From positions 2,027 through 66,026 of the forward strand of contig JBGSUE010000045.1 of NCBI GenBank assembly GCA_041753515.1: DNA of 64,000 nucleotides, given 5' to 3'. Below the pieces are notes generated by a model that ran no database searches, was not told the origin of the DNA, and was given only the letters and a program-made list of their open reading frames with translations. Origin of the DNA: Patescibacteria group bacterium. Its GTDB lineage: Bacteria; Patescibacteriota; Microgenomatia; UBA10105; UBA927. The translations under genes were made by a program, and so were the position numbers. Of this stretch, positions 3,271-64,000 are shown piece by piece (positions within the stretch are counted from its first letter, which is position 1; each line of letters begins with the position of its first letter).

Positions 3271-3345
3271 ATAAAGATGTAATTTACAATTTTCATGTGC
3301 GTATTATATCAAAAAGACGTTAAAAACAGTTTGTACACCTTCCAA

Positions 3346-3362
3346 TTTCGTCCCAACAGGTG
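3346..3362 (-). promoter_or_regulatory. conserved upstream motif copy 2 (TTTCGTCCCAACAGGTG), with TATAAT (from GATATAATAC) downstream on the minus strand
   Basis: Same motif family as 2484-2499 and 4623-4638. Confidence 0.35.
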
Positions 3363-3484
3363 AAAAAATTGTAAACCTAATTGTCAAGTAATTTGTACAC
3401 CCGGATTATTTTCAAAAAAGTATGTGAGATCAATGAAGTGTTCGAACATGATCCGGTACGGGGTACATGTATTTCAATACTGTA

Positions 3485-4561
3485 TTAACGCTTTAATCCT
3501 TGTAGAGCTTTCTTTACGAATTTTCCGAATTTCCGGTCTTTTACTCTTTTCTCCAATTCGGTCATTTTATAAAATTCAGATTCTTTTTTTAATTTAATAA
3601 AATTCCGATATTTATATTCGTCAAGTCTATTTTCTTTCACAGCCTGTATCACTGCACAACCTGGTTCACTGGTATGTGTACAATCGGAAAATTTACAATC
3701 ATGGGATAATGTACCGATTTCATCAAATACATGAACAAGTCCCGTATCCGATTCGGAAATTCCTACCTCTCTCGTTCCAGGATTATCGATGAGTAACCCT
3801 CCATTATCCAAAAAATACATTTCCCGTGTGGTCGTTGTGTGTTTTCCTCTTTCAAGAGTTAAACTAATTTCCCTGGTCTTGATTTCGTCTTTTCCAAGTA
3901 GTTTATTAATTAGCGATGATTTCCCGACTCCTGATGATCCCAGAAAACAATAGGTTTTCCCGGGGATGATATACTTTTTAAGTTCCTGGATTCCATTGTC
4001 AGAAATAATACTGGTTGTAATAATGTCAATATCGTTAAACCTGCTTTTTATCTGATTAATCCTGAAATTCAAATCGTTTTCCGAAATCAAATCAATCTTA
4101 TTAAGAATTATTGCAGGTTTCACCTTTCCTTCTTCTACGAGAACTAAAAATCTTTCGAATCGATTCAGATTATAATCCCTATCCATCGACTCTGTAATGA
4201 ATGCAGTATCAATATTTGTGGCAATTATCTGATTATCCTGCTTATTACTGTATTTCTTTTTCAGCACAGTACGTCTGGGAATAATCTTGCGGATAACAGC
4301 TTGTTTTCCGGTTAGACTTTCAAATATTACCCAATCACCGACAGCAGGAAAGTCTTCCCTTTTTGTTGCGATAAACATCTGTTTTCCCGTTATTTTTGCT
4401 ACATATTCATTTCGATCCTTATCTATAATCCGATAGGCTTCCTTATATTCAGCAGTTACTCTGGCAATGGGATAGCTGTCCAGTCCCAGTGTCTTTCTTG
4501 CTGTTTCAAAAAATTCACCATACCCTAGATCTTTCAATTTTATATTCGTTGTTGATTCCAT
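3485..4561 (-). CDS. rsgA: ribosome small-subunit-dependent GTPase A (circularly permuted GTPase)
   Basis: GSSGVGKSSLIN P-loop after the DxxG-type order, C-terminal zinc-finger cysteines (CKFSDCTHTSEPGC), OB-fold N-terminus. Confidence 0.9.
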   Translation of the reverse strand: MESTTNIKLKDLGYGEFFETARKTLGLDSYPIARVTAEYKEAYRIIDKDRNEYVAKITGKQMFIATKREDFPAVGDWVIFESLTGKQAVIRKIIPRRTVLKKKYSNKQDNQIIATNIDTAFITESMDRDYNLNRFERFLVLVEEGKVKPAIILNKIDLISENDLNFRINQIKSRFNDIDIITTSIISDNGIQELKKYIIPGKTYCFLGSSGVGKSSLINKLLGKDEIKTREISLTLERGKHTTTTREMYFLDNGGLLIDNPGTREVGISESDTGLVHVFDEIGTLSHDCKFSDCTHTSEPGCAVIQAVKENRLDEYKYRNFIKLKKESEFYKMTELEKRVKDRKFGKFVKKALQGLKR

Positions 4562-17520: not shown

Positions 17521-18483
17521 ATGTTTATCGATAGCGTGGATATTACAGTTATTGCAGGAAATGGCGGATCCGGTGCTGCCACGTTCCGGCGTACCGCACA
17601 GACTGCTTTTGGCGGACCTGACGGAGGCAATGGCGGAAACGGCGGAAATATCTATGTCCAAGGTTCGGTTCATATCAGAGATTTATCCGCATTCAGGTTT
17701 AAAAAAACAATTGAGGCCGAGCAAGGAGCACACGGTACAAAACATAACGGATTCGGCAAAAATGCCGCCCATACCACAATCTTCGTGCCCATCGGCACAA
17801 GAATAACCGATACCGATACGGGAGACATCATCGACATTCTCGATACCGATACACGCATACTTGTCGCAGAGGGAGGAAAAGGCGGCAAGGGAAACGTATT
17901 TTTCAAAAGTCCGACAAACAGGGCTCCGGAAAACAAGGAACCCGGAGGCACAGGTCAACAAAAACACATCCACCTGGAACTGTATCTTATTGCAAAAATC
18001 GGACTCGTGGGGCTACCGAACGCAGGAAAAAGCAGTCTTCTGGCTGCTCTCACCCGGGCCCGTCCTGCAATCGCTCCCTATCCGTTTACCACCCTTGAGC
18101 CGTCAATCGGCATGCTTGACGGATATGCTATTGCCGATATTCCGGGACTGATTGAAGGAGCATCCAATGGGAAAGGACTGGGTATACAATTTTTGAAACA
18201 CATCGAAAAAACAGAAGTACTGATCCACTGTATCGACTGCACGAACACCGATGTATGTAAAGCATACAATACTGTCCGGAACGAATTCAAAAACTATAAT
18301 CCGGAACTTATGCAAAAAAAAGAACTGATTTATCTGAATAAAACCGATCTTATCGATGAAAACATAGTACAAAAACTGATAAACGAGCTGAAACATCTGA
18401 ATCCAGAGATCGTCGCAGGTTCCGTTTACAGCCAAAAAACACTATCTACCCTCACCTCACGCATCTTTTCAATGCTCCGTTAA
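17521..18483 (+). CDS. obg: GTPase Obg
   Basis: Gly-rich Obg fold (GPDGGNGGNGGNIYVQG) then GLVGLPNAGKSSLL P-loop. Confidence 0.9.
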   Translation: MFIDSVDITVIAGNGGSGAATFRRTAQTAFGGPDGGNGGNGGNIYVQGSVHIRDLSAFRFKKTIEAEQGAHGTKHNGFGKNAAHTTIFVPIGTRITDTDTGDIIDILDTDTRILVAEGGKGGKGNVFFKSPTNRAPENKEPGGTGQQKHIHLELYLIAKIGLVGLPNAGKSSLLAALTRARPAIAPYPFTTLEPSIGMLDGYAIADIPGLIEGASNGKGLGIQFLKHIEKTEVLIHCIDCTNTDVCKAYNTVRNEFKNYNPELMQKKELIYLNKTDLIDENIVQKLINELKHLNPEIVAGSVYSQKTLSTLTSRIFSMLR

Positions 18484-18496
18484 CACATGTGGTGTA

Positions 18497-18521
18497 TTGA
18501 TGCTCCGATTTTTGCTATAAT
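18497..18521 (+). promoter_or_regulatory. putative extended -10 promoter (TGcTATAAT) upstream of the first GIY-YIG ORF
   Basis: TTGATG ... tttTGcTATAAT 10 nt before the ATG. Confidence 0.3.
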
Positions 18522-18530
18522 TACCTGCAC

Positions 18531-18794
18531 ATGGCATGGTTCTGCTATATTGTGGAATGCAGTGACGGATCACTGTATACAGGAATTACACTGGACCTTA
18601 AAAGACGGGAAGACGAACACAATACGGATGATAAAAAAGGTGCAAAATATACCAGATATAAACGTCCGGTAAAAATCGTGTATTCCGAAAAATTTCAGAC
18701 ACAATCCCAAGCACGGATAAGAGAAGCAGCAATTAAGAGATGGCCGAAAGAAAATAAGGTAAAATTGATAATGAAAAATAAAATGGGCCGCTAG
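18531..18794 (+). CDS. GIY-YIG nuclease family protein (YhbQ/UPF0213-like)
   Basis: YIVECSDGSLYTGIT ... KRREDEHN GIY-YIG core; TAG stop lies inside the tRNA-like sequence GGGCCGCTAGCTCAATGG. Confidence 0.75.
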   Translation: MAWFCYIVECSDGSLYTGITLDLKRREDEHNTDDKKGAKYTRYKRPVKIVYSEKFQTQSQARIREAAIKRWPKENKVKLIMKNKMGR

Positions 18795-18835
18795 CTCAAT
18801 GGTAGACCCGGCAGCTGCCGGGCTTTTAAGCGAAT
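18785..18835 (+). other. tRNA-like 5' fragment (acceptor plus D-arm-like GGGCCGCTAGCTCAATGGTAGA, then palindrome CCCGGCAGCTGCCGGG and CTTTTAAGC)
   Basis: Resembles the 5' half and anticodon loop of the downstream tRNA-Lys but has no matching 3' acceptor strand. Confidence 0.35.
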
Positions 18836-19114
18836 ATGTTTCAAGTTTATGTAATTCGGGCAAGTACGAATGGGAAAATATATATCGGGCAAACAGAAGA
18901 TATCGCTAAAAGATTGGATCAGCATAATAATCGCAATTTCGACAAACGTGCATATACAAAACTAAACGGAAAAGATTGGAAGATTGTGTATACTGAAGAA
19001 TATCAAACAAGATCTGAAGCTTTAAAACGAGAAAATGAACTCAAATCACACAGAGGAAGAGACTTTATTAAAAATTTACTTTCGGGGGTCGGTAGCTCAA
19101 CGGTAGAGCAGTAG
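18836..19114 (+). CDS. GIY-YIG nuclease family protein (YhbQ/UPF0213-like), second copy
   Basis: VYVIRASTNGKIYIGQTEDIAKRLDQHN; TAG stop falls at positions 8-10 of tRNA-Lys. Confidence 0.75.
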   Translation: MFQVYVIRASTNGKIYIGQTEDIAKRLDQHNNRNFDKRAYTKLNGKDWKIVYTEEYQTRSEALKRENELKSHRGRDFIKNLLSGVGSSTVEQ

Positions 19115-19158
19115 CCTTTTAAGCTATTGGTTCAGGGTTCGAATCCCTGCCGACTCAC
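19086..19158 (+). tRNA. tRNA-Lys (anticodon TTT)
   Basis: Hand-folded cloverleaf: acceptor GGGTCGG/CCGACTC, D-stem GCTC/GAGC, anticodon loop CTTTTAA, T-arm CAGGGTTCGAATCCCTG. Confidence 0.85.
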
Positions 19159-20927
19159 AAATTAGCATGTTTTACCCCGAACTTATCAGCAAGAAGTTGC
19201 TGAATAAGATATTGTGGTAAATTAAGTTGAATATCAATCTTGTCAGGTATTAACTGATCCTTCTTTGGTACACCAGCAATGCGATCCTTGTCGGTCTTTG
19301 GTCGGGCATACACAACAACTTGATCTATGATCATATGGATGAGTTCATACAATTCTTTTTCATCCTTTTCTGCTTTATTCAAGGCTTTCTCGTATTTTTT
19401 GGCATAAAGCTCCAGACTATACACATAGCCCTTTGATAAAGACTCCTGAGCAAGCTCAAAATCAATCTTTTTAATGCTTTCATTGCAATTACTTTCTTGT
19501 TTTTTTAATTCAGCAATTTGCTTGTTCAGTTCTTCAATATCAATATGTCCATGTGCGTGTTGATTGAGGATATTAGTCTTGATCTTGGGTATGGCATTAA
19601 GTATCTTAGTCCATCGCTTTCGTTCTTTTTTCAAACGATCAATGTTAATGCGAGATGAGTCTAACCCTTTCTGATATTCGTAAGTAGCTTTGGGATTGCT
19701 TAAAAGTTGCTTAACAAACTCAATAACATATTCTTCTAACTCATCTGCTGGAATAGGTATTACTGGACAGTTGTTCTGAGGGTATTTCTTCTTGTTTTTT
19801 CTGTTGCATTGGTAATAATAGGAAAAGTCTAATTTTTTACCTACATATTTTCTTGCTCCTGTCCAAGACCATTCGGATTCTTTTGATCCTCCCAGACTCC
19901 TGCAATGGTCGCATTTTAATAGACCAGATAGCAAGTAAAAATGTTGGTCAACCTTTCTCTGGGCAAGAGTTCTCCTTGCAGAGACCTCCTTCAATATCTT
20001 TTGAGCCAAATCAAACAATGGTTGCGGGATTATTGGCTCATGTTTATATGGAGATAATTTCCACTCACCCTTTGGTAAACGCTTACTTTTAACTGTCTTG
20101 TCGTAGTAGCGAGTACCGATATACACCTCATCCTCCAAGATCGATCTCACTGTTTCCATACGCCAGAAATGTATTGGGTTGGTCTTGCGAGGTTTTCCCT
20201 TGCGCTTGTTGTTGTTAATCGCTGAGATTTCAGGACTAACCATTTTTTGCTCCTGGAGAGTGTCTGCAATTTTCTGTGGACTGAGTCCACCTGTTGTAAA
20301 TAATCCAAAAATCATTTCTACAACATCAGATTCTTCCTTGAGAATTACCAAGTGTCCATTTTCGTCCTTGTTGTAACCATAAGGAGCGTTAGCCCCCATT
20401 AACTTTCCTTGTTTTATCGCTTCTTCACGACCACCTCTGGTTCTTGCCAAGATATTTTCTCGTTCAAGTTCTGCAAGGACGCCCATAATGCCAAGCATAG
20501 CCTTACCAAATGGGGTAGAAGTATCTATACTTTCAGTTGCCGAGAGAAACTCAATTTTATTTTCTTCAAAAAACTCAACAGTATCCATCAGTATCCGAAG
20601 TTTTCTGGCAAAACGATCTATCTTGAAAACTGCCACTGTATCAAAAGGTTTGTTACCCTTGGGAGCGAGAAGATAATCCTCCATCAATTTTCTGAAACCT
20701 GGTCTTTCTTCAAGTTTTACAGTTCCACTAATGTCATCATTATAGACGTGGTTTTCACCAGCAAATACAAATGATGGTTGCCCACTGTTCATATTTAACT
20801 TCGTTTTCAATAATGCTTCCACTGCTGATCTCTGAACATTAGGCCCAAACTTTTCTGCCTGATCATCTGTTGAGACTCGAATGTAAAAGGCAACCCTTCG
20901 TGGGATTTCTTGCTGTTTTCTATCCAT
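19155..20927 (-). CDS. large serine recombinase (serine integrase type)
   Basis: N-terminal resolvase catalytic domain (AFYIRVSTDDQ), recombinase domain and Cys-rich zinc ribbon (CDHC..CNRKNKKKYPQNNC), 590 aa. Confidence 0.9.
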   Translation of the reverse strand: MDRKQQEIPRRVAFYIRVSTDDQAEKFGPNVQRSAVEALLKTKLNMNSGQPSFVFAGENHVYNDDISGTVKLEERPGFRKLMEDYLLAPKGNKPFDTVAVFKIDRFARKLRILMDTVEFFEENKIEFLSATESIDTSTPFGKAMLGIMGVLAELERENILARTRGGREEAIKQGKLMGANAPYGYNKDENGHLVILKEESDVVEMIFGLFTTGGLSPQKIADTLQEQKMVSPEISAINNNKRKGKPRKTNPIHFWRMETVRSILEDEVYIGTRYYDKTVKSKRLPKGEWKLSPYKHEPIIPQPLFDLAQKILKEVSARRTLAQRKVDQHFYLLSGLLKCDHCRSLGGSKESEWSWTGARKYVGKKLDFSYYYQCNRKNKKKYPQNNCPVIPIPADELEEYVIEFVKQLLSNPKATYEYQKGLDSSRINIDRLKKERKRWTKILNAIPKIKTNILNQHAHGHIDIEELNKQIAELKKQESNCNESIKKIDFELAQESLSKGYVYSLELYAKKYEKALNKAEKDEKELYELIHMIIDQVVVYARPKTDKDRIAGVPKKDQLIPDKIDIQLNLPQYLIQQLLADKFGVKHANL

Positions 20928-21057
20928 ATTTCTTTACACTTGCAACAAGAGATAAGATTAAGTTCCTGGTGGGTTATCTCTATTTAGAGTATTATACTAA
21001 TTTTAGCGAGATTACACAAAGAGTTGAGTGAGGGTTTTGAAGTTATACTCGATAAAA

Positions 21058-21753
21058 TCAACTTGGGACAGGCTGACTAATTACAGGTTTCCCTGAATAG
21101 TCAATTAAAGTTAAGCCATTTTTAGCCAAAATTTCTGCCAATCTTACTTCGGGTGGCCTGAAATCATGGGGAGTATCATCAAATGAAACTGATTCTTCAA
21201 TAATCTTGGTTTTTTCTTCAACCAGTAGGTGTAGGTTATTTCTTCCAATAAAGTCGTTAATGACCTTCATAACAGAGAGGACTGGCGTTACAGAATCGTT
21301 GACGATTTTGAGTGGCATCCCTATCTTTTCTTCTTGCTCCAACGCCTTATCAAGTCGTTTGACTAACTTTGGTAACAGTTTTGTGGACAGGTACTCCATT
21401 TGCTCCAGTGAGGCTTTTTGCAAATCAGATCGTAGTAAGTCCAATTCAACTTCTTGTTTAACGACCAGTGCAATCCGTTTCGTGAGGCTGGCTTTATGAT
21501 ACTTATTCCTGTAATTCTCAACTGCCTTGTAACTGGGAAGTTCAACTGCTGGATATTGCTCACAAAGAGCTGCTAAGGCTTTTACTGGAGAAAGTTTATG
21601 AGTAAGAAGCTCATCGAGCTTGGTTCTTACTTCCTGGGGCAAAGCATGGATACTGGACTTAAAACCATCTCGTTTAAGTTGAGTTGCTTTCTGGAGATTG
21701 GCAACTCGGGTGAGATAGAAGTCGTCTTGTGGATTAGTATTTGGATCAATCAT
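21058..21753 (-). CDS. DUF3486-like phage protein (Mu gp27 / small terminase-like DNA-binding protein)
   Basis: LPQEVRTKLDELL...SYKAVENYRNKY pattern typical of DUF3486. Confidence 0.4.
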   Translation of the reverse strand: MIDPNTNPQDDFYLTRVANLQKATQLKRDGFKSSIHALPQEVRTKLDELLTHKLSPVKALAALCEQYPAVELPSYKAVENYRNKYHKASLTKRIALVVKQEVELDLLRSDLQKASLEQMEYLSTKLLPKLVKRLDKALEQEEKIGMPLKIVNDSVTPVLSVMKVINDFIGRNNLHLLVEEKTKIIEESVSFDDTPHDFRPPEVRLAEILAKNGLTLIDYSGKPVISQPVPS

Positions 21754-21848
21754 ATTCGCTTACTTAATTATAGCGAAAATGAGGGGTTTTGATCCATCTA
21801 TTTACAATTACTATCCTTCCATTTAGAAGGCTGCTGACCTGGAAAGTG

Positions 21849-22832
21849 TTACGAAAGCACTTTTTCTTTCAATTGCCCTATTAGTTTTCCCTCAATTTCA
21901 ATTTCACCGCTTTTTAATTGCTCTTGCGTATCAAACTCAGTATCAAATCCAGGTATGTGGATTTTACCATCTGGTTTTGTTCTTCCAGATTTAACCTTTT
22001 TCACCAACTCCGAGGAATTTTGCTTAAACTTATCAGTTCCAATTAAAAGATTTGGGCTAAATGCCATATAAAATGTTCCCCAATCTCCTTCATCAAATAC
22101 AAAAGATGCTCCTGTCAATGCACCAGCCAACAACTCCACCACCATTGCAAGACCAGACCCTTTATATGAACGATCAAACGGAAGAATCGCACCTTTCATA
22201 GCTAATTCTGGATCGGTGGTTAATTCACCATTTTTATCTACTGCGACATTTTCGGGTAACTTTTGACCTAACACCTTTGCCCTAACCAATCCATACCATG
22301 TTATTGCTGATGCAGCCATATCAAAGACGATAGGGTGTTCAATCGTTGGAAAGCCAAATGCGATAGGATTCGTACCATATGCCGGATCAATTCCTCCATG
22401 ATGTAATACTCCTCGTGGAGAACTTGCTGCTACAATTCCTATTAAATCTTGCTGTGCCATTTTTCTGGCATAGTAACTGATTGCCCCGACACTTGAAAAA
22501 GTATTATTTGTACCTACAACAGCAAATCCTTTTTTCTTTGCGATCTCTATTGCCTTATCTGTTGCAACTTGAGCTGCAAGAGGTCCAGCTGCCCCTCCAC
22601 CATCAATTAAAGCTGATAGCTCTGTCTCTTTAATAGTCTTTGGAGGGTATTTTGGTTTTATATCCTGAGCAGGCTCTGAACCAAGTAATTTGAGCAGTCC
22701 TTGAGTGTTTTTCCCTGTAAGTTCTGCGTACAAAAAAACATCAGCAATTTTCTCTGCTTCATCAGCTGAATAGTATTTGCTTGTTAGAGCTTTTGTCATT
22801 AGCTCTCTCAACTTTGAGATTTTTATCTTCAT
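21849..22832 (-). CDS. Ldh_2 family oxidoreductase (malate/L-lactate/ureidoglycolate dehydrogenase family 2)
   Basis: Overall Ldh_2 architecture (~330 aa), GTNPIAFGFP and HGG motifs. Confidence 0.7.
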   Translation of the reverse strand: MKIKISKLRELMTKALTSKYYSADEAEKIADVFLYAELTGKNTQGLLKLLGSEPAQDIKPKYPPKTIKETELSALIDGGGAAGPLAAQVATDKAIEIAKKKGFAVVGTNNTFSSVGAISYYARKMAQQDLIGIVAASSPRGVLHHGGIDPAYGTNPIAFGFPTIEHPIVFDMAASAITWYGLVRAKVLGQKLPENVAVDKNGELTTDPELAMKGAILPFDRSYKGSGLAMVVELLAGALTGASFVFDEGDWGTFYMAFSPNLLIGTDKFKQNSSELVKKVKSGRTKPDGKIHIPGFDTEFDTQEQLKSGEIEIEGKLIGQLKEKVLS

Positions 22833-22870
22833 AGCGTTATTTTATCAGAAAGTGATCCCGTCTGACATAA

Positions 22871-22894
22871 GAAAACCCCTCCATGAAGAAGGGG
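22871..22894 (-). terminator. rho-independent terminator after the DUF4352 gene
   Basis: Minus-strand CCCCT-N9-AGGGG stem followed by TTTTCTT. Confidence 0.5.
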
Positions 22895-22921
22895 CTTTCT
22901 CTTAAAGAACAGGCCTATTCT

Positions 22922-23476
22922 TTACTGTAATTTCACTTTTGCACCTTTGCCAAATAATGAACCTTTGACAAGAAGCATAGGATTACTAATATCTGATGGT
23001 AAATCAAATACTAAGTCTCCTGTGACAGAAAGTGATGGTTGAACCTGTTGCAAGAACAGATCAACATTTCCCTGAGCCATACCTTTGGCTGTTTGACCCT
23101 CGATTGAGCGTTCAAACTCACGACCTTGATCATCAGTCACTTTTGCCATTGAACTGTCAAAAGTAGCTGTCTTGTTACCTTTATTTTCTATCTTCAAAGT
23201 CACAACATAGAATGTGCCTTGTGAGTTCTTCTGGGTGTATGAATTACCCAGAGACTTTGCAGTTTCAACATTGGTAACTGTGAAAGCTAAATCACCATCT
23301 TGGACTACTTCATTAAGTCCATATTGTTTTTCGCTTTCAGCCTTACTACCTCCATTGGAAGCAGAATTACTGTTGGAGTTAGATGATTGATTGTCTGACT
23401 TTCCAGCTCCAGCAATTGCTCCGATAACGATAAGTACAACGAAGCCGATAAGACCCCATTTTAGGATTTTCTTCAT
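22922..23476 (-). CDS. DUF4352-like membrane-anchored protein
   Basis: N-terminal TM, Ser/Asn-rich linker, C-terminal beta domain (LAFTVTNVETAKSLG...TFYVVTLKIENKGNKTATF) typical of DUF4352. Confidence 0.6.
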   Translation of the reverse strand: MKKILKWGLIGFVVLIVIGAIAGAGKSDNQSSNSNSNSASNGGSKAESEKQYGLNEVVQDGDLAFTVTNVETAKSLGNSYTQKNSQGTFYVVTLKIENKGNKTATFDSSMAKVTDDQGREFERSIEGQTAKGMAQGNVDLFLQQVQPSLSVTGDLVFDLPSDISNPMLLVKGSLFGKGAKVKLQ

Positions 23477-23523
23477 AATGTGTTCACCCCCCTTCGAGTT
23501 AGGTTACTCATAATTTGTTCCTT

Positions 23524-23610
23524 TCTATTTTTTTAGAAAATAGATGGTTATAAGCGTAATTATAGCAGAAAACACCCATTGTAGTGCGTGGATTAGTATG
23601 GGTGTTTTTT
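23524..23610. promoter_or_regulatory. divergent control region with 8-bp palindrome TCTATTTTTTTAGAAAATAGA and an ACACCCAT/ATGGGTGT hairpin plus T-tract immediately upstream of the XRE gene
   Basis: Perfect palindromes between divergent genes; candidate operators or attenuator. Confidence 0.4.
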
Positions 23611-23623
23611 ATGTAATAAGAGC

Positions 23624-23881
23624 ATGAAACCAAAAACGATCGAAAGATCACAGGAAAGGAGAGAGGAAAAGAAGAAGTTTGGTTCTAAAATTGGCAAGCA
23701 TCTGAGAAAGATTAGAGAGTCAAAAAATATCAGTCAGGAAAATCTTTCTTTGGCTGCTGGCTACTACCGAACTTATGTAGGTAAGATTGAGATGGGTAAC
23801 TATTCTCCCAGTATGCACACAATTTGGAGACTATCGCATACGTTGGGTATGTCACTCGAGGACTTCTTCAAAGGATTTTAA
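23624..23881 (+). CDS. XRE-family helix-turn-helix transcriptional regulator
   Basis: HTH_3 pattern ISQENLSLAAGYYRTYVGKIEMGNYSPSMHTIWRLSHTLGMSLEDFF. Confidence 0.8.
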   Translation: MKPKTIERSQERREEKKKFGSKIGKHLRKIRESKNISQENLSLAAGYYRTYVGKIEMGNYSPSMHTIWRLSHTLGMSLEDFFKGF

Positions 23882-23882
23882 T

Positions 23883-24389
23883 CTATTGGCTTTTTGGCAT
23901 ATTCCGATGTATATCAATAAACCATCGGCTAAACTCATCTCTTAAATTTCTGATCCAATTAGCAATATCTTGTCCTTCACTCATCAATTCCATAAAGCGT
24001 TTATCGTAGTATTCTTTCTGAAAATGGAATACTCCATTTCGATAGCGTCTAAGCAATTCAACATTTGGAGATTTTAGTAGTGAATCAATTTTAGGATCAG
24101 TCAATTTTAATTCTTGCCATCCTTCAATAAGCACATAGAAAGTTCCATACCAAAGAGACATATAAAGAAAAGTATCAATGCCATTTTCAGTTTTTGGTAA
24201 TTCCACAGCAACAGGTTTCGACTCTGCCCTTTTAAGAATCTCATCGAAATGAACTCTCATTCTATCTGCCCAAATAAAATATCTATGCAGTGTGATAATT
24301 TCAGGTGTTAATTGGTTTTTGGTATCAGGATTTTCTGACATATTCGTATTATATCGAAAATCAGAATTGAGATTCATCTCTTTCCTCAA
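23883..24389 (-). CDS. hypothetical protein with HEPN-like R-N-x3-H motif (possible abortive-infection RNase)
   Basis: LLRRYRNGVFHFQ fits the Rx4-6H HEPN signature; helical; convergent with the XRE gene. Confidence 0.35.
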   Translation of the reverse strand: MRKEMNLNSDFRYNTNMSENPDTKNQLTPEIITLHRYFIWADRMRVHFDEILKRAESKPVAVELPKTENGIDTFLYMSLWYGTFYVLIEGWQELKLTDPKIDSLLKSPNVELLRRYRNGVFHFQKEYYDKRFMELMSEGQDIANWIRNLRDEFSRWFIDIHRNMPKSQ

Positions 24390-25002
24390 AAAACTGATAC
24401 AGCTCTAAGCACGCTTTCTTTGTTTTATCCTCCCCAGCAATATGCTTTTTATTCTTTATTCTTGATCCTTCTCGAAAGAACTCATTATCATCTTTGCCTA
24501 ATTCACGGCCTCGTTCAGTATGCTCATCAATGGCATATTCAGGTATCTCAGGCTTCCATCCTTGCTCTTTGCGTTTCAGAAGCACACCACCGAGATAATC
24601 AGTGTGACGTGATTTCTTGCTCCGAGCCATGTACGAAATGATGAACCCAAGAACATTGTTATCAACTTGGATCATTTTCTTTACCTTATCTTGAGCCAGC
24701 AGAGAAGAATATGTACTACTTACAAGAATCATTGCTTCTGGATTTGCCAGTCCAATATCTTCACCAGCGATAACTTGTAATCTTCTGAAACAGTATCGCC
24801 AAAATCCTGATTCATTTAGTTCAAATGCCCAATATGAAGCCATCAACTCATTACCTCTGCGGATTTCCTTTTGTAAAGCACTGACTATCTCATCTAACTT
24901 ATATCCATTTTTTGTTCTCAGTTCAAAACCTTTATACTTTTCAACCTTTTGTTCTTCGGTTTCTGTTGGTGTGTTTAATAATTTTTGTTGCTTTGTTTTC
25001 AT
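24361..25002 (-). CDS. hypothetical protein (island cargo)
   Basis: 213 aa, no recognised motif. Confidence 0.4.
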   Translation of the reverse strand: MKTKQQKLLNTPTETEEQKVEKYKGFELRTKNGYKLDEIVSALQKEIRRGNELMASYWAFELNESGFWRYCFRRLQVIAGEDIGLANPEAMILVSSTYSSLLAQDKVKKMIQVDNNVLGFIISYMARSKKSRHTDYLGGVLLKRKEQGWKPEIPEYAIDEHTERGRELGKDDNEFFREGSRIKNKKHIAGEDKTKKACLELYQFFEERDESQF

Positions 25003-25097
25003 AGTTTAGCTGTCATTATTTGCGACAGGCTGTCGCATATTTAATGGTTAATTTTTTAGGTGCTGTAATGAGAGTTATAGCTGGTTGAGTCATATTT

Positions 25098-26021
25098 TTA
25101 GTCAAAATTGATGGTATTAAATGTCTCGTAAAATCTTGGTAAATCAGCTTTCTTTTTAAGATTGTCATTGTAGACTTGAAGCATTTCTAAACTTTTGTGT
25201 CTGGTGTACTGGGCAACTGTAAGAATGTCACCTTTGTATGCCTTGATTAACTTGGTAGTGAAGTAGTGACGAAAGCCATGAACTGTTTTGTCAATCTCAA
25301 GGCTTCTAAGAATCGGGTTTATTAGGCAACGTATTGATTTGGTAGTTAAACGATGGTTTCGGCTGTTATTGCTGGTACTGGTGAATAACGCACCATCAGC
25401 AATTTTGTATTGCCTAATGTAATCTTTGAGGGCTGCAACAGCTACTGGATGTAAATCAATGATTTCTTTGTCATCCTGTCCCTTACCTTGAATAAAGGCT
25501 ACCTGTGAAACAAGATCAATTTCAGTTACATCCAGGCGAACTATCTCAATTTGTCTAAGTCCTTGCAGAATCAGGAGACTTAAAAGGGCTTTGATTCGAC
25601 TGGTGGAAAGATTAGAGTTTTGGGCTTGAATGTAGCTGAGGATTCTTTGTACTTCTTCCTCTGAAAAGCCATCTTTTTTATGTTTTCTGCTTTGTTGAAA
25701 GGATTTTACGTTTTGTGTAATGTCTATTGGCAAGTACCCTTGACGATGTAATTCTTTGCAATATACCCTTGCCACAATTAAATACTTATTCTTAGTGCTG
25801 ACAGCAAAATCAGTCCGTTGAGACAGGTGTCGCTTATATTCTAAGTAGCTATGCTTGGTAAATCCCTGTTTTTTAATGAAATCAATAAAACTGCCAATTC
25901 TTGAATAGTATTCTCGCCTGGTGTTTTCTGAGATATCCAAATGAGCGAATACCTGTGCGTTCCAATCAATAGGTACTAAATTATTTTCCATAACCATCTC
26001 TGCTCCAAGCAAGGAGTTCAA
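25098..26021 (-). CDS. tyrosine recombinase / phage-type integrase
   Basis: C-terminal catalytic HGFRHYFTT (HxxR) and terminal Tyr region TVAQYTRHKSLEMLQVY; N-terminal SAM-like domain. Confidence 0.85.
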   Translation of the reverse strand: MNSLLGAEMVMENNLVPIDWNAQVFAHLDISENTRREYYSRIGSFIDFIKKQGFTKHSYLEYKRHLSQRTDFAVSTKNKYLIVARVYCKELHRQGYLPIDITQNVKSFQQSRKHKKDGFSEEEVQRILSYIQAQNSNLSTSRIKALLSLLILQGLRQIEIVRLDVTEIDLVSQVAFIQGKGQDDKEIIDLHPVAVAALKDYIRQYKIADGALFTSTSNNSRNHRLTTKSIRCLINPILRSLEIDKTVHGFRHYFTTKLIKAYKGDILTVAQYTRHKSLEMLQVYNDNLKKKADLPRFYETFNTINFD

Positions 26022-60358: not shown

Positions 60359-60913
60359 TCAGGAAAACGTCACTTTGACCGGCTTTCTATCCGATTCTGA
60401 TGCTCCAAAAAACTCTTTTTCACCGAATCCGAGCTGTGAGGCAATCATATTATTCGGAAACACCTTTATTTTTACATTGTAGTCCATGACGGTCGAATTG
60501 TAATACTGCCGTGAATAGGCCACTTTATCCTCCGTGTCTGATAATTCTTTCTGAAGCTGGAGAAAATTCTCATTGGCCTTCAGCGTCGGGTAATTTTCGG
60601 CAACAGCAAACAGCTTGCCGAGTGCGCTTGTCAGCATATCGCTAGCCTCCCCCATCTTCTGCGGAGTTGTCGCGTGCATCAAGGCTGATCTAGCTTTCGT
60701 AACATCGGAAAACACCGTCTTTTCATGCTTGGCATACCCTTTCACCGTTTCCACCAGGTTCGGGATCAGATCGGCTCTGCGTTTGAGCTGTACATCAATC
60801 TGACTCCACGCTTCCTCTATGCGTGTTTTCATGGTAATCAACCCGTTGTACAGGCTCCACAAATAGGCAACAATCAGGGCTATACCGCCGCCCGCTATCA
60901 TAAATGGATTCAT
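60359..60913 (-). CDS. lemA: LemA-family protein
   Basis: N-terminal TM then LemA pattern ([34 protein letters not shown]). Confidence 0.85.
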
Positions 60914-62691
60914 AACTCACCTCCTTTTAACCATATGAGTATATCATGATATGGCATCGTGTTGACAACATCCTTTTTTTCAAGCCATCCGCGCTGGGCC
61001 GTCCAGACTCCGTACTGCATCACATCCATGCCGTCCAGATCATGGGAATCGGTATTGATTGCACATTTCAAACCATGTTTTACTGCCTCACGAATTAGTG
61101 CATCCGGAAGATCAAGCCGGGACGGATGGGCATTGATTTCCATTACCACAGACCTCTGAGCTGCTAACCGAAATATGTCGCTCCAGTCTGCCTCTATACT
61201 CCGGCGGCTCCCGATCAGCCGTCCGGTTGGATGTCCGAGAATCCTGACTTTCGGATGTGCACTGATCGCTTTGCGTATCCGCTCAGTCATCTGCTCGATC
61301 GGCATGGTAAAAGATGAATGGACAGAGACAATCACAGCATCAAGATAATCAAATGCATTATCGGGCAATGCGAGATCGCCGGAAGGTGTGATATCCACTT
61401 CCAGCATTGTAAAGTACATTATAGGTGTTCGAGTACTTTTAGTATACGAATAATATTCATGCTCATAATATGATTTACGTCTTTTTAATACAGTACAAAT
61501 GTCTTTTTCAGATGAGTGACTGATCCTCGGATTATGGTCGCTTATACCGATATACGAATATCCTGTCTGTTCGGTTTTTATTAATATTTCCTTAAATGTT
61601 GCAGTACCTATATCATGGGATGAATGTATATCGTACGCATCATGAATATGGAGGTCTCCCCGGATATCGTCCGGTTGAATGAGGGCTGGCAATTCACCAT
61701 CAATTGCCGCCCGGACTTCTCCCGTATCCTCCCGCAATACCGGAGGTATCCACTGCATGCCTAATTCTTTGTAAAATCTTTTCTCATCGGGAATTTTCTT
61801 TAATTTCCCGGTTTTCATATTTTTTATACCGTACTCATTCAGGCTCACTCCCCGATCAAGAGCGTAGGAACGAAGGGCGATATTATGGTTTTTCGAACCG
61901 GTAAAATACTGCAGCATTGCCCCATATGAATCAGGGTGTCCGACACGAAGGTCTATCTGGCGTCCGTTGGCTAATAGGAGCGATGCCCCAGAGGGTCCCC
62001 GTTCAATCACTGACTCATGGGGATACATGAGAAAATGGCTTAAAACCGATTCGGGATTGAGTGTGGCAACAGCAATATCAATATCCCCGATTGATTCAGC
62101 TCTTCTGCGCAGACTTCCCAATGTATCAATCTTTTCCACATCGGGTGATTGTTTCATGTGAACCACGACGCTTTGGGCAATAAAGAGAGCCTCGTCAAGC
62201 CGGATTCTTTTTTCCTTTACGGCTCCTTTACGGTACTCTTCGATATGCCGGATCAAATCTTCCTGGGATTTCTCCCCGAATCCTTCAATCGTTTCAATTT
62301 TCCTTTTTTTGCAGGCTATATACAGGTCATCAATGACCGTATCAGGTTTCGTCAGTTTCAATGTCTGTACAAGTTTATATGCCTTCTTCGGGCCGATACC
62401 CGAGACAGACAGCAGAGGAAATACGGCAGTCGGTACTTTTGAAAATACAGATTCAAAATGTGATACTTTTCCTGATTTAAACAGTTCCTCAAGATGTGAC
62501 CGGATTGTCTTGCCGATACCGGGCAATTCATCCTTCAGCGAAGATTGCACGGACAGAGGGAGACCGGCTATCGTCTCTGCCGCCTTCTCATACGCAATGA
62601 TTTTAAACCGGTTTTCACCCAATATCTCATACGCGGCAGCTATATTACGAAATAGTTCAGAAATTTGTGCATTAGTAAACGTATGACTCAT
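60910..62691 (-). CDS. DNA polymerase X family with C-terminal PHP domain
   Basis: Pol-beta-like start [34 protein letters not shown], HhH GIGPKKA, nucleotidyltransferase [18 protein letters not shown] His motifs; ORF-track extension overlaps tRNA-Asp and was trimmed. Confidence 0.85.
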
Positions 62692-62761
62692 TACACACAT
62701 GCTACCATACCGTTGCCCACCGCTCAATTTTCCTCTATAATGAGCTGTAGTTTCGGTAGAT

Positions 62762-62837
62762 GGTCGCGTGGTGTAGCCTGGCCTAACACGTTTCCCTGTC
62801 AAGGAAAAGATCGCCGGTTCGAATCCGGTCGCGACCG
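62762..62837 (+). tRNA. tRNA-Asp (anticodon GTC)
   Basis: Hand-folded: acceptor GGTCGCG/CGCGACC, anticodon loop CTGTCAA, T-arm GCCGGTTCGAATCCGGT. Confidence 0.85.
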
Positions 62838-62923
62838 CACAGAACTCCTATCTATACAAACCAAAAAAAATATAGTATAAATTATTTTACTGCCATAATA
62901 CTTCTGCCCGGAAAGGTTTCAAC

Positions 62924-63484
62924 ATGCCAAAAGAAATACCAGCACCTACACCACAATCTCCTGTGGACACCTACATCTCCCTTGCTTTGGGAGTTGCTGT
63001 CGTTGTTCTTATCGGAGCAGTTGCCTATAATATGATTTCCAAAAACAATCAGGAGCCGGGAGGTGCAGACACAAGTCTGGATGCAACGCAATCCGGTACT
63101 GCTACACTGATGGAACTTCCGGCAAAACATACGGTGAAAGATGGGGAAACACTCTGGAGTATTGCCGAGAATTATTATAACAGCGGATATAACTGGGTTG
63201 ATATTGCCGAGGAAAATAAGCTTGGAAGCGGCGACAGTGTTGCGGCAGGCACTGCCCTTACAATCCCTGACGCAGAACCGATAGAAGTGGGAAGCATTGG
63301 TGGAGCAGCCACAAGCGATGTGAAGCCGAAAAACAGCACCTACACGGTCCAGAAAGGCGATTCTCTGTGGAATATCGCACTTGCCCAATACGGCACAGGC
63401 TACAAATGGCCGGATATCGCAAAAGCCAATAAAATAGCTAATCCGGACCTCATATTCACCGGAACCGTCCTGACACTTCCGTAA
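62924..63484 (+). CDS. LysM-domain protein (two LysM repeats) with N-terminal membrane anchor
   Basis: HTVKDGETLWSIAENYY and YTVQKGDSLWNIALAQYG LysM motifs. Confidence 0.85.
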   Translation: MPKEIPAPTPQSPVDTYISLALGVAVVVLIGAVAYNMISKNNQEPGGADTSLDATQSGTATLMELPAKHTVKDGETLWSIAENYYNSGYNWVDIAEENKLGSGDSVAAGTALTIPDAEPIEVGSIGGAATSDVKPKNSTYTVQKGDSLWNIALAQYGTGYKWPDIAKANKIANPDLIFTGTVLTLP

Positions 63485-63529
63485 TTAGCATACATTGTGA
63501 TATATTTTTCATACACAGTGCGGGTGTAG

Positions 63530-63596
63530 TCGCCTCATCGGCGACCCGCCACGGGTCGCACACAGGCGACCCGCCGGAGAGGCGGGTACACCGGTT
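63530..63596 (+). other. GC-rich three-hairpin element starting with a copy of the tRNA-Gly 5' end (GCGGGTGTAGT) and containing direct repeat GGCGACCCGCC x2
   Basis: GTCGCC-TCATC-GGCGAC, GGTCGC-ACACA-GCGACC and CCGCC-GGAGA-GGCGG hairpins in an AT-rich region. Confidence 0.35.
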
Positions 63597-63623
63597 AACC
63601 ATATTATTTCAGCATATTTTGCT

Positions 63624-63890
63624 ATGTTTTATGTTTATGTTGTACAAAGCAATAAAAATAGTACATTATATATTAGAAAAACAAATGACTTAAAAAGAAG
63701 ACTGAAAGAACACAATTCAGGACACGGCGGTGTTTATACCAAAAAAAATGGTCCATATACGCTAATATACTATGAAGCGTTTTTAGATAGTAGAGATGCA
63801 GCGATACAGGAATTGTTTTACAAAAGCGGATACGGAAAGGAAATATTAAAGGAAAAAATTAAAAATAGTTTATATCATAAGCGGGTGTAG
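63624..63890 (+). CDS. GIY-YIG nuclease family protein (YhbQ/UPF0213-like), third copy
   Basis: YVYVVQSNKNSTLYIRKTNDLKRRLKEHN; TAG stop at positions 8-10 of tRNA-Gly. Confidence 0.75.
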   Translation: MFYVYVVQSNKNSTLYIRKTNDLKRRLKEHNSGHGGVYTKKNGPYTLIYYEAFLDSRDAAIQELFYKSGYGKEILKEKIKNSLYHKRV

Positions 63891-63951
63891 TACACTGGCA
63901 GTATGCGACCTTCCCAAGGTTGAGAAGAGGGTTCGATTCCCTTCACCCGCT
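63880..63951 (+). tRNA. tRNA-Gly (anticodon CCC)
   Basis: Hand-folded: acceptor GCGGGTG/CACCCGC, anticodon loop TTCCCAA, T-arm GAGGGTTCGATTCCCTT. Confidence 0.8.
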
Positions 63952-64000
63952 CACGAGTCAAACTCGCTTGTTTGTTTGACGAGTGCCAAGTCTGACTTGG

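Follow-up and report, generated by a model that had tools for sequence, protein, structure and literature searches.

The window analysed here, 64,000 nucleotides (nt) of contig JBGSUE010000045.1 from a Patescibacteria group bacterium, has a G+C content of 43% and contains three transfer RNA (tRNA) genes, on which ARAGORN and Rfam concur, as well as exactly three open reading frames (ORFs) for GIY-YIG nucleases, as judged by a six-frame scan with hidden Markov models (HMMs). Two of these ORFs, g1 and g2, are arranged in tandem in front of tRNA-Lys(UUU), while the third, g3, precedes tRNA-Gly(CCC). At both loci an additional, partial copy of the adjoining tRNA is present, which consists of a first tRNA-derived segment (A), an inserted hairpin and a second tRNA-derived segment (C) with which the tRNA sequence resumes (Table 1). 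The nuclease ORF together with its hairpin is referred to as the cassette and is the subject of this article.

An initial annotation, which was made from the letters of the window, had described g1 and g2 as tandem YhbQ-like GIY-YIG ORFs of 87 and 92 amino acids (aa), and this is borne out by Pfam and by the HMM scan. The E-values for PF01541 range from 5e-14 to 9e-18 for the three ORFs, with scores of 64.8 (g1), 65.0 (g2) and 52.8 bits (g3) compared to a curated cut-off of 22.6. The three proteins are mutually only ~30% identical, and no second domain is detected in any of them by Pfam, so that each comprises the catalytic domain alone (87–92 aa). Y5, Y16, R26, H30 and E66 are invariant in an alignment of 25 sequences, and we take them to be the equivalents of the catalytic residues of I-TevI. 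The best matches among solved structures are the UPF0213 proteins 1YWL (E = 4.8e-16) and 1ZG2 (E = 1.1e-15), followed by SLX1 proteins, which are structure-specific nucleases (E ~1e-6). The contig index holds no record of the exact g2 sequence. On viral contigs only distant relatives were found, with 32–59% identity over partial matches and 32–35% for near-full-length matches, for which reason carriage by phages was set aside.

Table 1. Coordinates of the cassette components and tRNA genes in the window.
Feature	Position	Strand	Description
Promoter-like box TGCTATAAT	18513–18521	+	Extended -10-like box, 9 nt before the g1 ATG; read by eye
g1	18531–18794	+	87-aa stand-alone GIY-YIG nuclease, UPF0213/YhbQ-like family
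Segment A, locus 1 GGGCCGCTAGCTCAATGGTAGA	18785–18806	+	Copy of tRNA-Lys positions 1–22, 19/22 bases identical to 19086–19107
Hairpin, locus 1 CCCGGCAGCTGCCGGG	18807–18822	+	Perfect palindrome; stem of 6 base pairs, loop of 4 nt
Segment C, locus 1 CTTTTAAGC	18823–18831	+	tRNA-Lys positions 31–39, including the anticodon loop
g2	18836–19114	+	92-aa GIY-YIG nuclease, Lys-targeting hairpin-bearing clade
tRNA-Lys(UUU)	19086–19158	+	Intact; ARAGORN; Rfam tRNA model 74.1 bits
tRNA-Asp(GUC)	62762–62838		ARAGORN and Rfam
Segment A, locus 2	63520–63530	+	Exact copy of tRNA-Gly positions 1–11; 0.02 expected by chance
Hairpin cluster, locus 2	63531–63586	+	Nested, GC-rich, 56 nt; inserted in the partial tRNA-Gly copy
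Segment C, locus 2 TACACCGG	63587–63594	+	7/8 bases as in tRNA-Gly 11–18 (D-arm); short, weak alone
g3	63624–63890	+	88-aa GIY-YIG nuclease
tRNA-Gly(CCC)	63881–63952	+	Intact; ARAGORN and Rfam

Architecture of the two loci

At the first locus, the stop codon of g1 (TAG, 18792–18794) coincides with positions 8–10 of the tRNA-like segment A. A degenerate 22-mer spanning segment A and the 5' end of tRNA-Lys has only these two sites in the 64 kb, with 0 expected. The hairpin then stands in place of tRNA-Lys positions 23–30 (GCAGTAGC), and segment C ends 4 nt ahead of the ATG of g2. The initial annotation had already read the end of g1 as a tRNA 5' fragment followed by a perfect palindrome and the short piece downstream of it, and had placed the end of g2 within an intact tRNA-Lys(UUU), both of which agree with the sequence and with the tRNA predictions. 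It had also proposed that both ORFs terminate with the triplet U8-A9-G10 of a tRNA-like sequence. This holds for g1; in g2 the triplet is out of frame, and the ORF runs 29 nt into tRNA-Lys to a TAG at tRNA positions 27–29 (19112–19114). As for the fragment itself, which had been expected to score as tRNA, no Rfam tRNA match was obtained for 18785–18831, although the piece is too short and too interrupted for this result to be informative, while the identity to tRNA-Lys positions 1–22 was confirmed. The tRNA origin assigned to 18785–18831 is based on this direct identity and on dozens of loci that are built alike.

The initial annotation had further stated that the arrangement recurs at a distal locus, and indeed the stop codon of g3 (TAG) likewise falls on positions 8–10 of tRNA-Gly, with an 11-nt copy of the tRNA 5' end lying upstream of the ORF. 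At this locus the tRNA copy is interrupted by a cluster of hairpins rather than a single one, and the region is more stable when folded than shuffled sequence (63515–63630: -52.3 kcal/mol, z = -5.2, with none of 200 shuffled sequences as stable).

Consensus scans for promoters and terminators upstream of g1 and g3 returned nothing convincing, and no canonical -35/-10 pair precedes g1, so the statements on promoters made here are based on TGnTATAAT-like boxes read directly. The box TGCTATAAT is probably the former promoter of tRNA-Lys, which would now drive g1, g2 and tRNA-Lys; in empty tRNA-Asn loci a TATAAT box is found at a comparable distance from tRNA position +1. A group I intron was rejected as an explanation of either locus, since Rfam searches of 18400–19250 and 63450–64000 returned only the intact tRNAs and no intron family even at E ≤10.

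The third tRNA of the window, tRNA-Asp(GUC), bears no cassette and has a canonical promoter (TTGCCC-17-TATAAT) ~20 nt upstream (62713–62838). A minus-strand ORF of 630 aa (60910–62802) overlaps this tRNA because the ORF list takes the most upstream start codon; its true start probably lies further downstream.

Association with tRNA genes across genomes

To place these loci in context, 80 related loci (L numbers below) were collected from species-representative genomes. The search was seeded on relatives of g2 (the narrower alignment A2), which replaced the alignment of 25 sequences (A1) as too diverse for locus finding. The hosts are mostly Patescibacteria, but include Ignavibacteriota, Melioribacter, Verrucomicrobiota, Bacteroidota and Planctomycetota. 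In 64 of the 80 loci, ARAGORN places a tRNA on the same strand either where the ORF stops or immediately ahead of its start, whereas only 9 of the 1749 remaining ORFs (≥60 aa) of these loci are as close to a tRNA, so that the enrichment beside tRNA genes, on which the initial annotation had made its proposal depend, is clearly present. The tRNA starts within -50 to +60 nt of the ORF stop in 46 loci, two of which have an additional tRNA just upstream of the ORF, and lies directly upstream of the ORF start only in another 18. The most common offset places the stop codon exactly on tRNA positions 8–10. The target is tRNA-Asn(GUU) in 50 loci, and cassettes are also found with tRNAs for Lys (CUU, UUU), Arg, Met, His and Asp, with tRNA-Glu on the opposite strand (L006) and, in the window, with tRNA-Gly.

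The contig ends just after the ORF in seven loci, and in the remaining nine no adjacent tRNA was called. Most of these nine turned out to be tRNA-linked when inspected: in L013 and L045 the contig ends in cassette arrays, a 3' partial tRNA copy with hairpin is present in L027 and L077, and in L032 a tRNA-Asn follows 216 nt downstream, past a unit lacking an ORF. In L026 and L042 a large insertion in the anticodon loop, located after CTGT, divides the tRNA-Asn, which thus cannot be called by ARAGORN. The insertion in L026 (from ~3280) carries an ORF that by eye resembles an HNH endonuclease, while that in L042 (~3280–3560) comprises ~250 nt and no ORF. Here one tRNA gene bears two different selfish elements, which fits the group I introns reported from such tRNAs (PMC13011429).

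Contigs ending within ~150 nt after the cassette are frequent (L002, L009, L016, L022, L028, L030, L034, L040, L041, L045, L063 and others). The repeated tRNA pieces, or multiple copies of the cassette, probably break short-read assemblies, and cassette loci are therefore likely to be under-counted in metagenome-assembled genomes.

Layout of occupied loci

In occupied loci the ORF is flanked by the intact tRNA and by a partial copy of that tRNA, within which the hairpin replaces internal bases before the tRNA sequence resumes. In the Candidate Phyla Radiation (CPR) the order is native promoter, segment A, hairpin, segment C, a few nt, ATG, ORF and intact tRNA; the partial copy thus represents the 5' part of the tRNA and is located upstream of the ORF, as at locus 1 of the window. 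The ORF usually lacks a stop codon of its own and ends within tRNA-derived sequence or in the hairpin, often at the conserved U8-A9-G10. In Ignavibacteriota, Verrucomicrobiota and relatives the layout is mirrored, such that the intact tRNA-Asn is followed by a terminator, the ORF and a 3' partial copy, with the ORF oriented like the tRNA in every case. The hairpin of these loci is mostly located in the T loop of the partial copy, or just past the anticodon loop (L062, L074), and in L024 the duplication reaches beyond the tRNA into the terminator. Ignavibacteriota L024 (2828–2870) and L043 (2713–2745 and 2900–2990) contain extra hairpin-bearing partial copies of tRNA-Asn upstream as well, with the hairpin TCCCGAT..ATCGGGA, so that scars gather on both sides of this tRNA.

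The systematic duplication of the tRNA 5' end, which the initial annotation had suggested looking for, is therefore seen upstream of the ORF in locus after locus. Two details of its proposal have to be modified. The duplicated part is not limited to the first ~11–22 nt: a 5' segment is indeed copied upstream of the ORF, but as part of a larger, hairpin-bearing partial tRNA copy. Furthermore, insertion at tRNA 5' ends describes the CPR loci, whereas other phyla mirror the arrangement at the 3' side of the tRNA.

The point at which the hairpin interrupts the tRNA differs between clades. In the Asn clade, segment A comprises positions 1–13 and segment C extends from position 17 to a variable end at 23–32, the 16-nt hairpin substituting three nt of the D loop in 33 of the 44 inserts with defined position. 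Among the Lys clades, one type has the hairpin replacing eight nt after 22/23, with segment C starting from the anticodon loop (L004, L007, L038 and the window), while in the other the hairpin lies within the D loop (L001, L017). g2 groups with cassettes adjoining tRNA-Lys in L006 and L009. L004 has the same layout with A = 1–22 and carries TCCGGCTGCGCCGGA at the matching tRNA position, and the tRNA sequence resumes in the same manner in L004, L006, L007 and L038. In L056 (Asp) and L064 (Met) the whole anticodon arm is replaced by the hairpin.

A simple target-site duplication was rejected as the source of the partial copy, because the upstream copy bears the hairpin and the duplicated length varies. 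Formally, and in both orientations, the layout equals the attL and attR sites that would result from a crossover in the tRNA segment beside the hairpin. This would be expected from an integration of the Campbell type, in which an excised circle recombines with the tRNA gene by way of a tRNA-like attachment site, made up of segments A and C and the hairpin between them, within the tRNA segment common to both, and thereby restores the tRNA. The perfect 311-nt tandem repeat of L007, which consists of two identical units in front of tRNA-Lys, is in line with such a scenario in that the unit begins exactly at tRNA position 1. However, the cassette encodes no recombinase, the length of the resumed segment varies even within one clade, as seen from the right end of segment C in the Asn clade, and the extension of the duplication into the terminator in L024 speaks for repair by recombination more than for a fixed core site, which together make Campbell-type integration highly improbable. 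In L054 (2940–3530) the ~11 nt upstream of tRNA position +1, (C/A)AATC(C/T)TATAT, are repeated before both fragments and before the intact tRNA, and judging from this repeat the duplicated unit may in some loci begin in the tRNA leader and not at +1.

The hairpin

The 16-nt hairpin has the consensus TCCGCC-AGCT-GGCGGA, or more generally TCCGNN-NNNN-NNCGGA, and variants preserve the pairing: TTCGCT..AGCGAA, TCCGTT..AACGGA, TCCGCT..AGCGGA and, in the window, CCCGGC..GCCGGG (CCCGGCAGCTGCCGGG). In inserts chosen by position, and not by pairing, the stem is 100% paired. Compensatory double changes are found in three of the six stem pairs, and none of 500 shuffles attains the observed covariation. 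Because pairing persists between cassettes whose ORFs have diverged to a dS (synonymous substitutions per site) of 0.6 to more than 1, the stem is under selection. Being symmetric, the compensation is more in keeping with a hairpin formed by single-stranded DNA or RNA than with a half-site bound by a protein. A genome-wide repeat resembling repetitive extragenic palindromic (REP) elements was rejected, since related hairpins occur in the window only at the two cassette loci. The palindrome of the window is thus a characteristic and conserved feature of the cassette.

Hairpins can also be nested, such that an inner hairpin sits in the loop of an outer one, where again three nt are replaced. Examples are L042 and L079 (TCCGCC[TCCGCCAGTTGGCGGA]TGGCGGA), L050, in which the inner loop has GG for AG, and L021 (TTCGCCG[TTCGCTATCTAGCGAA]GGCGAA); L025 and L057 are nested too, and the hairpin cluster upstream of g3 belongs to this kind. 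An additional hairpin is present at the extreme 5' end of the partial tRNA copy in L025 (TCCGCCGTATGGCGGA) and L033 (TCCGCCGTACGGCGGA). Its leading TCCG equals tRNA-Asn positions 1–4, and the four outermost base pairs of the hairpin consensus are identical to the outer pairs of the tRNA-Asn acceptor stem in these lineages, a sequence identity that could be due to chance or provide a clue to the origin of the hairpin.

The location of the hairpins raises the question of whether they direct the insertion itself. In such a transposition-like process, the nuclease would cut stem-loop DNA in its loop and the cassette would be joined there, leaving the hairpin as the end of the element. The substrate could be the arms of a tRNA gene, when single-stranded or supercoiled DNA extrudes them, or the loop of a hairpin already present, and the cassette would move by insertion and not by copying from allele to allele. 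Such a process would explain why the hairpin always sits at an arm or loop of the tRNA (the D loop in Asn cassettes, the T loop in Ignavibacteriota and the anticodon arm in L056 and L064), why exactly three loop nt are replaced in most inserts of the Asn clade, and why hairpins are nested in older loops with the same replacement of three nt, as in the six nested loci named above and at 63531–63586 of the window. It would also agree with the structure specificity of SLX1, the closest characterised relative, and with the hairpin accompanying the ORF across lineages while the flanking tRNA pieces usually match the local tRNA. On the other hand, we know of no GIY-YIG enzyme that joins DNA, and the cassette encodes neither a ligase nor a recombinase. 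A single hairpin per cassette does not provide a pair of defined ends, the partial tRNA duplication requires a separate explanation, and the identical nested hairpins of L042, L050 and L079 may have been inherited rather than acquired independently. Overall, insertion directed by the hairpin is considered unlikely, albeit less so than integration of a circle.

Signs of mobility and turnover

An empty-site comparison at the window locus via Obg, a protein that places the window in Patescibacteria (the CPR), lacked a close relative, the nearest Obg being 63% identical, and was therefore made on the well-sampled tRNA-Asn instead. Metagenomes were scanned for the intact core sequence of a single tRNA-Asn that related Saccharibacteria-type loci have in common, which yielded 105 loci with sufficient upstream sequence. 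The GIY-YIG ORF is absent from 103 of these and present in two (L089 and L160), and three of the 103 contain decayed scars without an ORF (L094, L116 and L133). The occupied L025 shares a 77%-identical upstream gene, the promoter box GATATAAT and the tRNA with the empty loci L086 and L154, and is longer than these by ~370 nt in the interval from promoter to tRNA. Both flanks of L025 are matched by a further empty site, L144. The insertion of ~300–370 nt encodes the GIY-YIG ORF only, with no tyrosine or serine recombinase. Together with the association with tRNA genes and the systematic duplication, these empty sites with the same flanks support the suggestion of the initial annotation that a selfish, tRNA-targeting cassette has inserted at tRNA genes.

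Several loci contain more than one unit. In addition to the tandem repeat of L007, two different cassettes, each with fragment and hairpin, follow each other in L054 and L051, comparable to the succession of g1, fragment and g2 in the window. Units of fragment and hairpin that lack an ORF lie between ORF and tRNA in L025, L033, L036 and L032, and the spacer in L025 and L033 resembles the last ~15 nt of the cassette, which points to internal deletion. In L013, at least four ORF-less units of ~96 nt are arrayed in tandem from downstream of the ORF to the contig end. Each combines the hairpin TCCGCCAACTGGCGGA with a tRNA 5' piece before it and a resumption of the tRNA after it, which means that such fragments can be amplified while the nuclease gene is not. 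ORF-less units and decayed scars indicate that cassettes are gained, degenerate and are lost in a cycle. The hairpin interrupts the partial copy, yet an intact tRNA copy adjoins it, and the tandem arrays suggest renewed targeting. Two copies with 99% identity and different flanks are present in one Planctomycetota genome bin (L076/L077). The nuclease clades follow the tRNA isotype, the type and position of the hairpin, and the orientation of the layout. The ratio of nonsynonymous to synonymous substitutions (dN/dS) of 0.09–0.15 at dS 0.6–2, in combination with the invariant catalytic residues, suggests that the protein is active in some role.

Strong purifying selection of this kind could also reflect a function for the host, namely a housekeeping or regulatory nuclease linked to tRNA (in processing, quality control or repair of the highly transcribed tRNA genes) that is co-transcribed with the tRNA for co-regulation, the fragments being by-products of local rearrangement. 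The apparent co-transcription from the tRNA promoter is consistent with this idea, as is the presence of the g1 clade upstream of tRNA-Lys in several lineages without scars, and prokaryotic Slx1-like domains are fused to or paired with TrmH and COG4123 (PMC1564403). However, the ORF is missing from 103 of 105 loci with an identical tRNA-Asn core and from the tRNA-Asp of the window. The arrays, the scars, the bin with multiple copies and the occurrence in many phyla and with many tRNA isotypes are, moreover, what characterises a parasite. A host function is thus very unlikely, and the conserved tRNA-processing partnership that the initial annotation had offered as an alternative finds no support in these distributions.

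A probable order of events at tRNA-Lys

No fragment lies upstream of g1. Its closest relatives (62–68% identical) are located directly upstream of tRNA-Lys(CUU) within tRNA clusters (L201, L203), where they read into the tRNA or stop 56 nt short of it, and they have neither fragment nor hairpin. By these features and its sequence, g1 represents a different clade from the hairpin-bearing g2 cassettes, so that the fragment separating g1 from g2 is most readily interpreted as the scar on the left side of a g2 cassette that inserted into the tRNA-Lys which g1 had previously adjoined. The most economical order of events would start from obg, promoter, g1 and tRNA-Lys, with a g2-type cassette later entering tRNA-Lys at 22/23, such that the old 5' end of the tRNA became segment A and still holds the stop codon of g1. 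However, two of the three differences between segment A and the present tRNA-Lys are located in the acceptor stem. The 5' and 3' strands of the present tRNA pair with each other, while the acceptor strand of segment A (GGGCCGC) mismatches the present 3' strand at two positions, and it is therefore doubtful that the fragment is the old 5' end of the present tRNA-Lys. Either the whole tRNA-Lys was co-converted from a donor, or the fragment arrived with the element.

On the other side of the tRNA from g2, and outside of the cassette, lies a large serine recombinase of 590 aa on the minus strand (19155–20927), the stop codon of which is located inside the last 4 nt of tRNA-Lys. Beyond it, up to 26021, follow unknown ORFs, an Ldh_2 gene, a truncated MgsA_C fragment and a tyrosine integrase (25101–26021). 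The region 19155–26021 looks like a second, independent mobile island on the 3' side of the same tRNA-Lys, although no second copy of the tRNA-Lys 3' end that would mark its far boundary is found in the window. A g1 relative, P0145, shares the order seen in the window, with a GIY-YIG ORF, a gap of ~165 nt and a large serine recombinase on the opposite strand.

A probable homing-like cassette in tRNA genes

Taken together, the copies in the window probably represent a small mobile cassette (~300 nt) that is selfish, behaves in a homing-like manner and has tRNA genes as its target. The cassette consists of the gene for a minimal UPF0213/Slx1-like GIY-YIG nuclease of 85–95 aa and the conserved 16-nt hairpin. 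To judge from the intact tRNA copies, the host retains a working tRNA, and in CPR the cassette lies between the native promoter and the tRNA. This reading builds on the architecture and its recurrence across phyla, on empty sites, arrays and scars, on the specificity of clades for their targets and on purifying selection acting on both the ORF and the stem; from these we infer the movement of the cassette and a function of the hairpin. In the proposed mechanism, the nuclease would cut an empty tRNA gene at the position taken up by the hairpin in an occupied allele, a step to which the correspondence of nuclease clades with tRNA type and hairpin position lends indirect support, and repair by the host would copy the occupied allele, with the partial copy and the intact tRNA acting as portable homology. 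The cassette would thus carry its own landing arms of near-universal tRNA sequence. The retained intact tRNA could be cut again, and unequal repair would then give rise to tandem arrays. The hairpin would be a required cis element, which either provides a structure for binding or cleavage by the nuclease or disrupts the target site in the dead copy. The nuclease gene would be transcribed from the strong native tRNA promoter, which would still drive the tRNA. Speculatively, ribonuclease P (RNase P), by cutting at the 5' end of the tRNA, would leave many of the messenger RNAs without a stop codon and could thereby limit nuclease levels.

Several observations weigh against homing as the mode of movement. 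The activity of the nuclease and its target site are predictions, and according to Pfam the protein lacks a DNA-binding domain, unlike known GIY-YIG homing endonucleases. An occupied locus keeps the presumed target in its intact tRNA, so that classical immunity is not evident, and the homology arms are very short (13 nt plus 7–16 nt). Simple templated repair does not predict the nested hairpins and the consistent replacement of three nt, and the mismatch at three positions between fragment and tRNA (in the window, L051 and L030) is ill-suited to a simple local duplication. Finally, g1 and its closest relatives have neither fragment nor hairpin, and more distant members of the g1 family, such as P0238 (Flavobacteriaceae), P0182 (marine metagenome) and P0157, do not adjoin a tRNA.

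These weak points keep alive the mechanism directed by the hairpin and, at lower odds, the Campbell-type or guide-like readings. More generally, there is a small chance that the hairpin-bearing partial tRNA is a working targeting module rather than a scar. In one version of this possibility the nuclease would bind the hairpin and insert it into stem-loop DNA, which would amount to a new GIY-YIG mode of transposition. In another, segment A, hairpin and segment C would form a transcript or single strand that acts as a guide, the hairpin being the scaffold and the flanks pairing with the tRNA gene, so that the target would be re-programmed with each insertion. If true, either version would explain how a catalytic domain of 85 aa tracks at least eight tRNA isotypes at varied positions, as well as the nesting of hairpins.

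Comparison with known systems

The homing-like cassette shares features with several known systems. Seg proteins of T4-like phages are ~200 aa or longer and possess separate DNA-binding modules, whereas the cassette proteins comprise 85–95 aa with the catalytic domain alone; by Pfam, the separate module with which I-TevI and Seg proteins recognise a long site is absent. SegB of T4, like the cassette protein, has a GIY-YIG domain, is encoded by a free-standing gene among tRNA genes that is not part of an intron, and shows a selfish pattern of presence and absence between relatives. According to the abstract of its description, SegB is a free-standing GIY-YIG homing endonuclease gene in a tRNA gene cluster, and that abstract mentions neither a partial tRNA duplication nor a conserved hairpin (PMC2330249). 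The hosts of the cassette are bacterial chromosomes of several phyla instead of phages. Sporadic presence combined with empty cognate sites in close relatives is shared with free-standing homing genes in general. In sequence family, size and single-domain build the proteins resemble UPF0213 (YhbQ, EF2693 and BH0048) and Slx1, which are, however, treated as housekeeping or repair factors. A survey of the GIY-YIG superfamily from 2006 reported fusions of Slx1-like domains to TrmH, a tRNA methyltransferase, as well as both fusions and pairings with the predicted methyltransferase family COG4123, and describes no linkage to tRNA genes (PMC1564403).

Islands and prophages that are borne by integrases also target tRNA genes, leave a partial duplicate at one end and a regenerated intact tRNA at the other, and do not harm the host. 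By contrast, the cassette has no integrase, spans ~300 nt and not kilobases, uses the 5' part of the tRNA in CPR, and has a conserved hairpin in the dead copy. Group I introns, some with homing endonuclease genes, have been reported in tRNA-Asn and tRNA-Asp of Patescibacteria, without mention of GIY-YIG, hairpins or duplication (PMC13011429). They share the hosts and the favoured tRNA with the cassette, which differs in lacking a ribozyme and in keeping the tRNA functional by duplication, not by splicing. A conserved DNA hairpin selected for its structure as a cis hallmark is also known from IS200/IS605, REP/RAYT and integron attC, whereas the cassette encodes no HUH or tyrosine enzyme, its only ORF being GIY-YIG, and targets a tRNA gene; its single hairpin also distinguishes it from IS200/IS605, with two subterminal ones. 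A study of insertions in ribosomal RNA genes of CPR found GIY-YIG genes in non-intron insertions, which were judged to be outside classical homing. No published description of this cassette architecture was found, although literature coverage was incomplete and this is absence of evidence only.

Implications for GIY-YIG nucleases and tRNA genes

The phenomenon is real and more general than the initial annotation had seen. The cassette is best placed among the selfish homing-type nuclease genes, as a new variant, and its mechanism may prove to be new. A tiny protein, a hairpin and a tRNA gene suffice to ask how a nuclease without a DNA-binding domain finds its target. The cassette accounts for tRNA-like fragments, for ORFs annotated into tRNAs and for contig breaks adjacent to tRNAs in genomes of CPR, Ignavibacteriota and Verrucomicrobiota, and it possibly gives a part of the large stand-alone UPF0213/YhbQ family a concrete biological role. 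Beside the splicing of introns and the reconstitution by integrases, duplication combined with a hairpin-marked dead copy represents a third way of living in an essential RNA gene.

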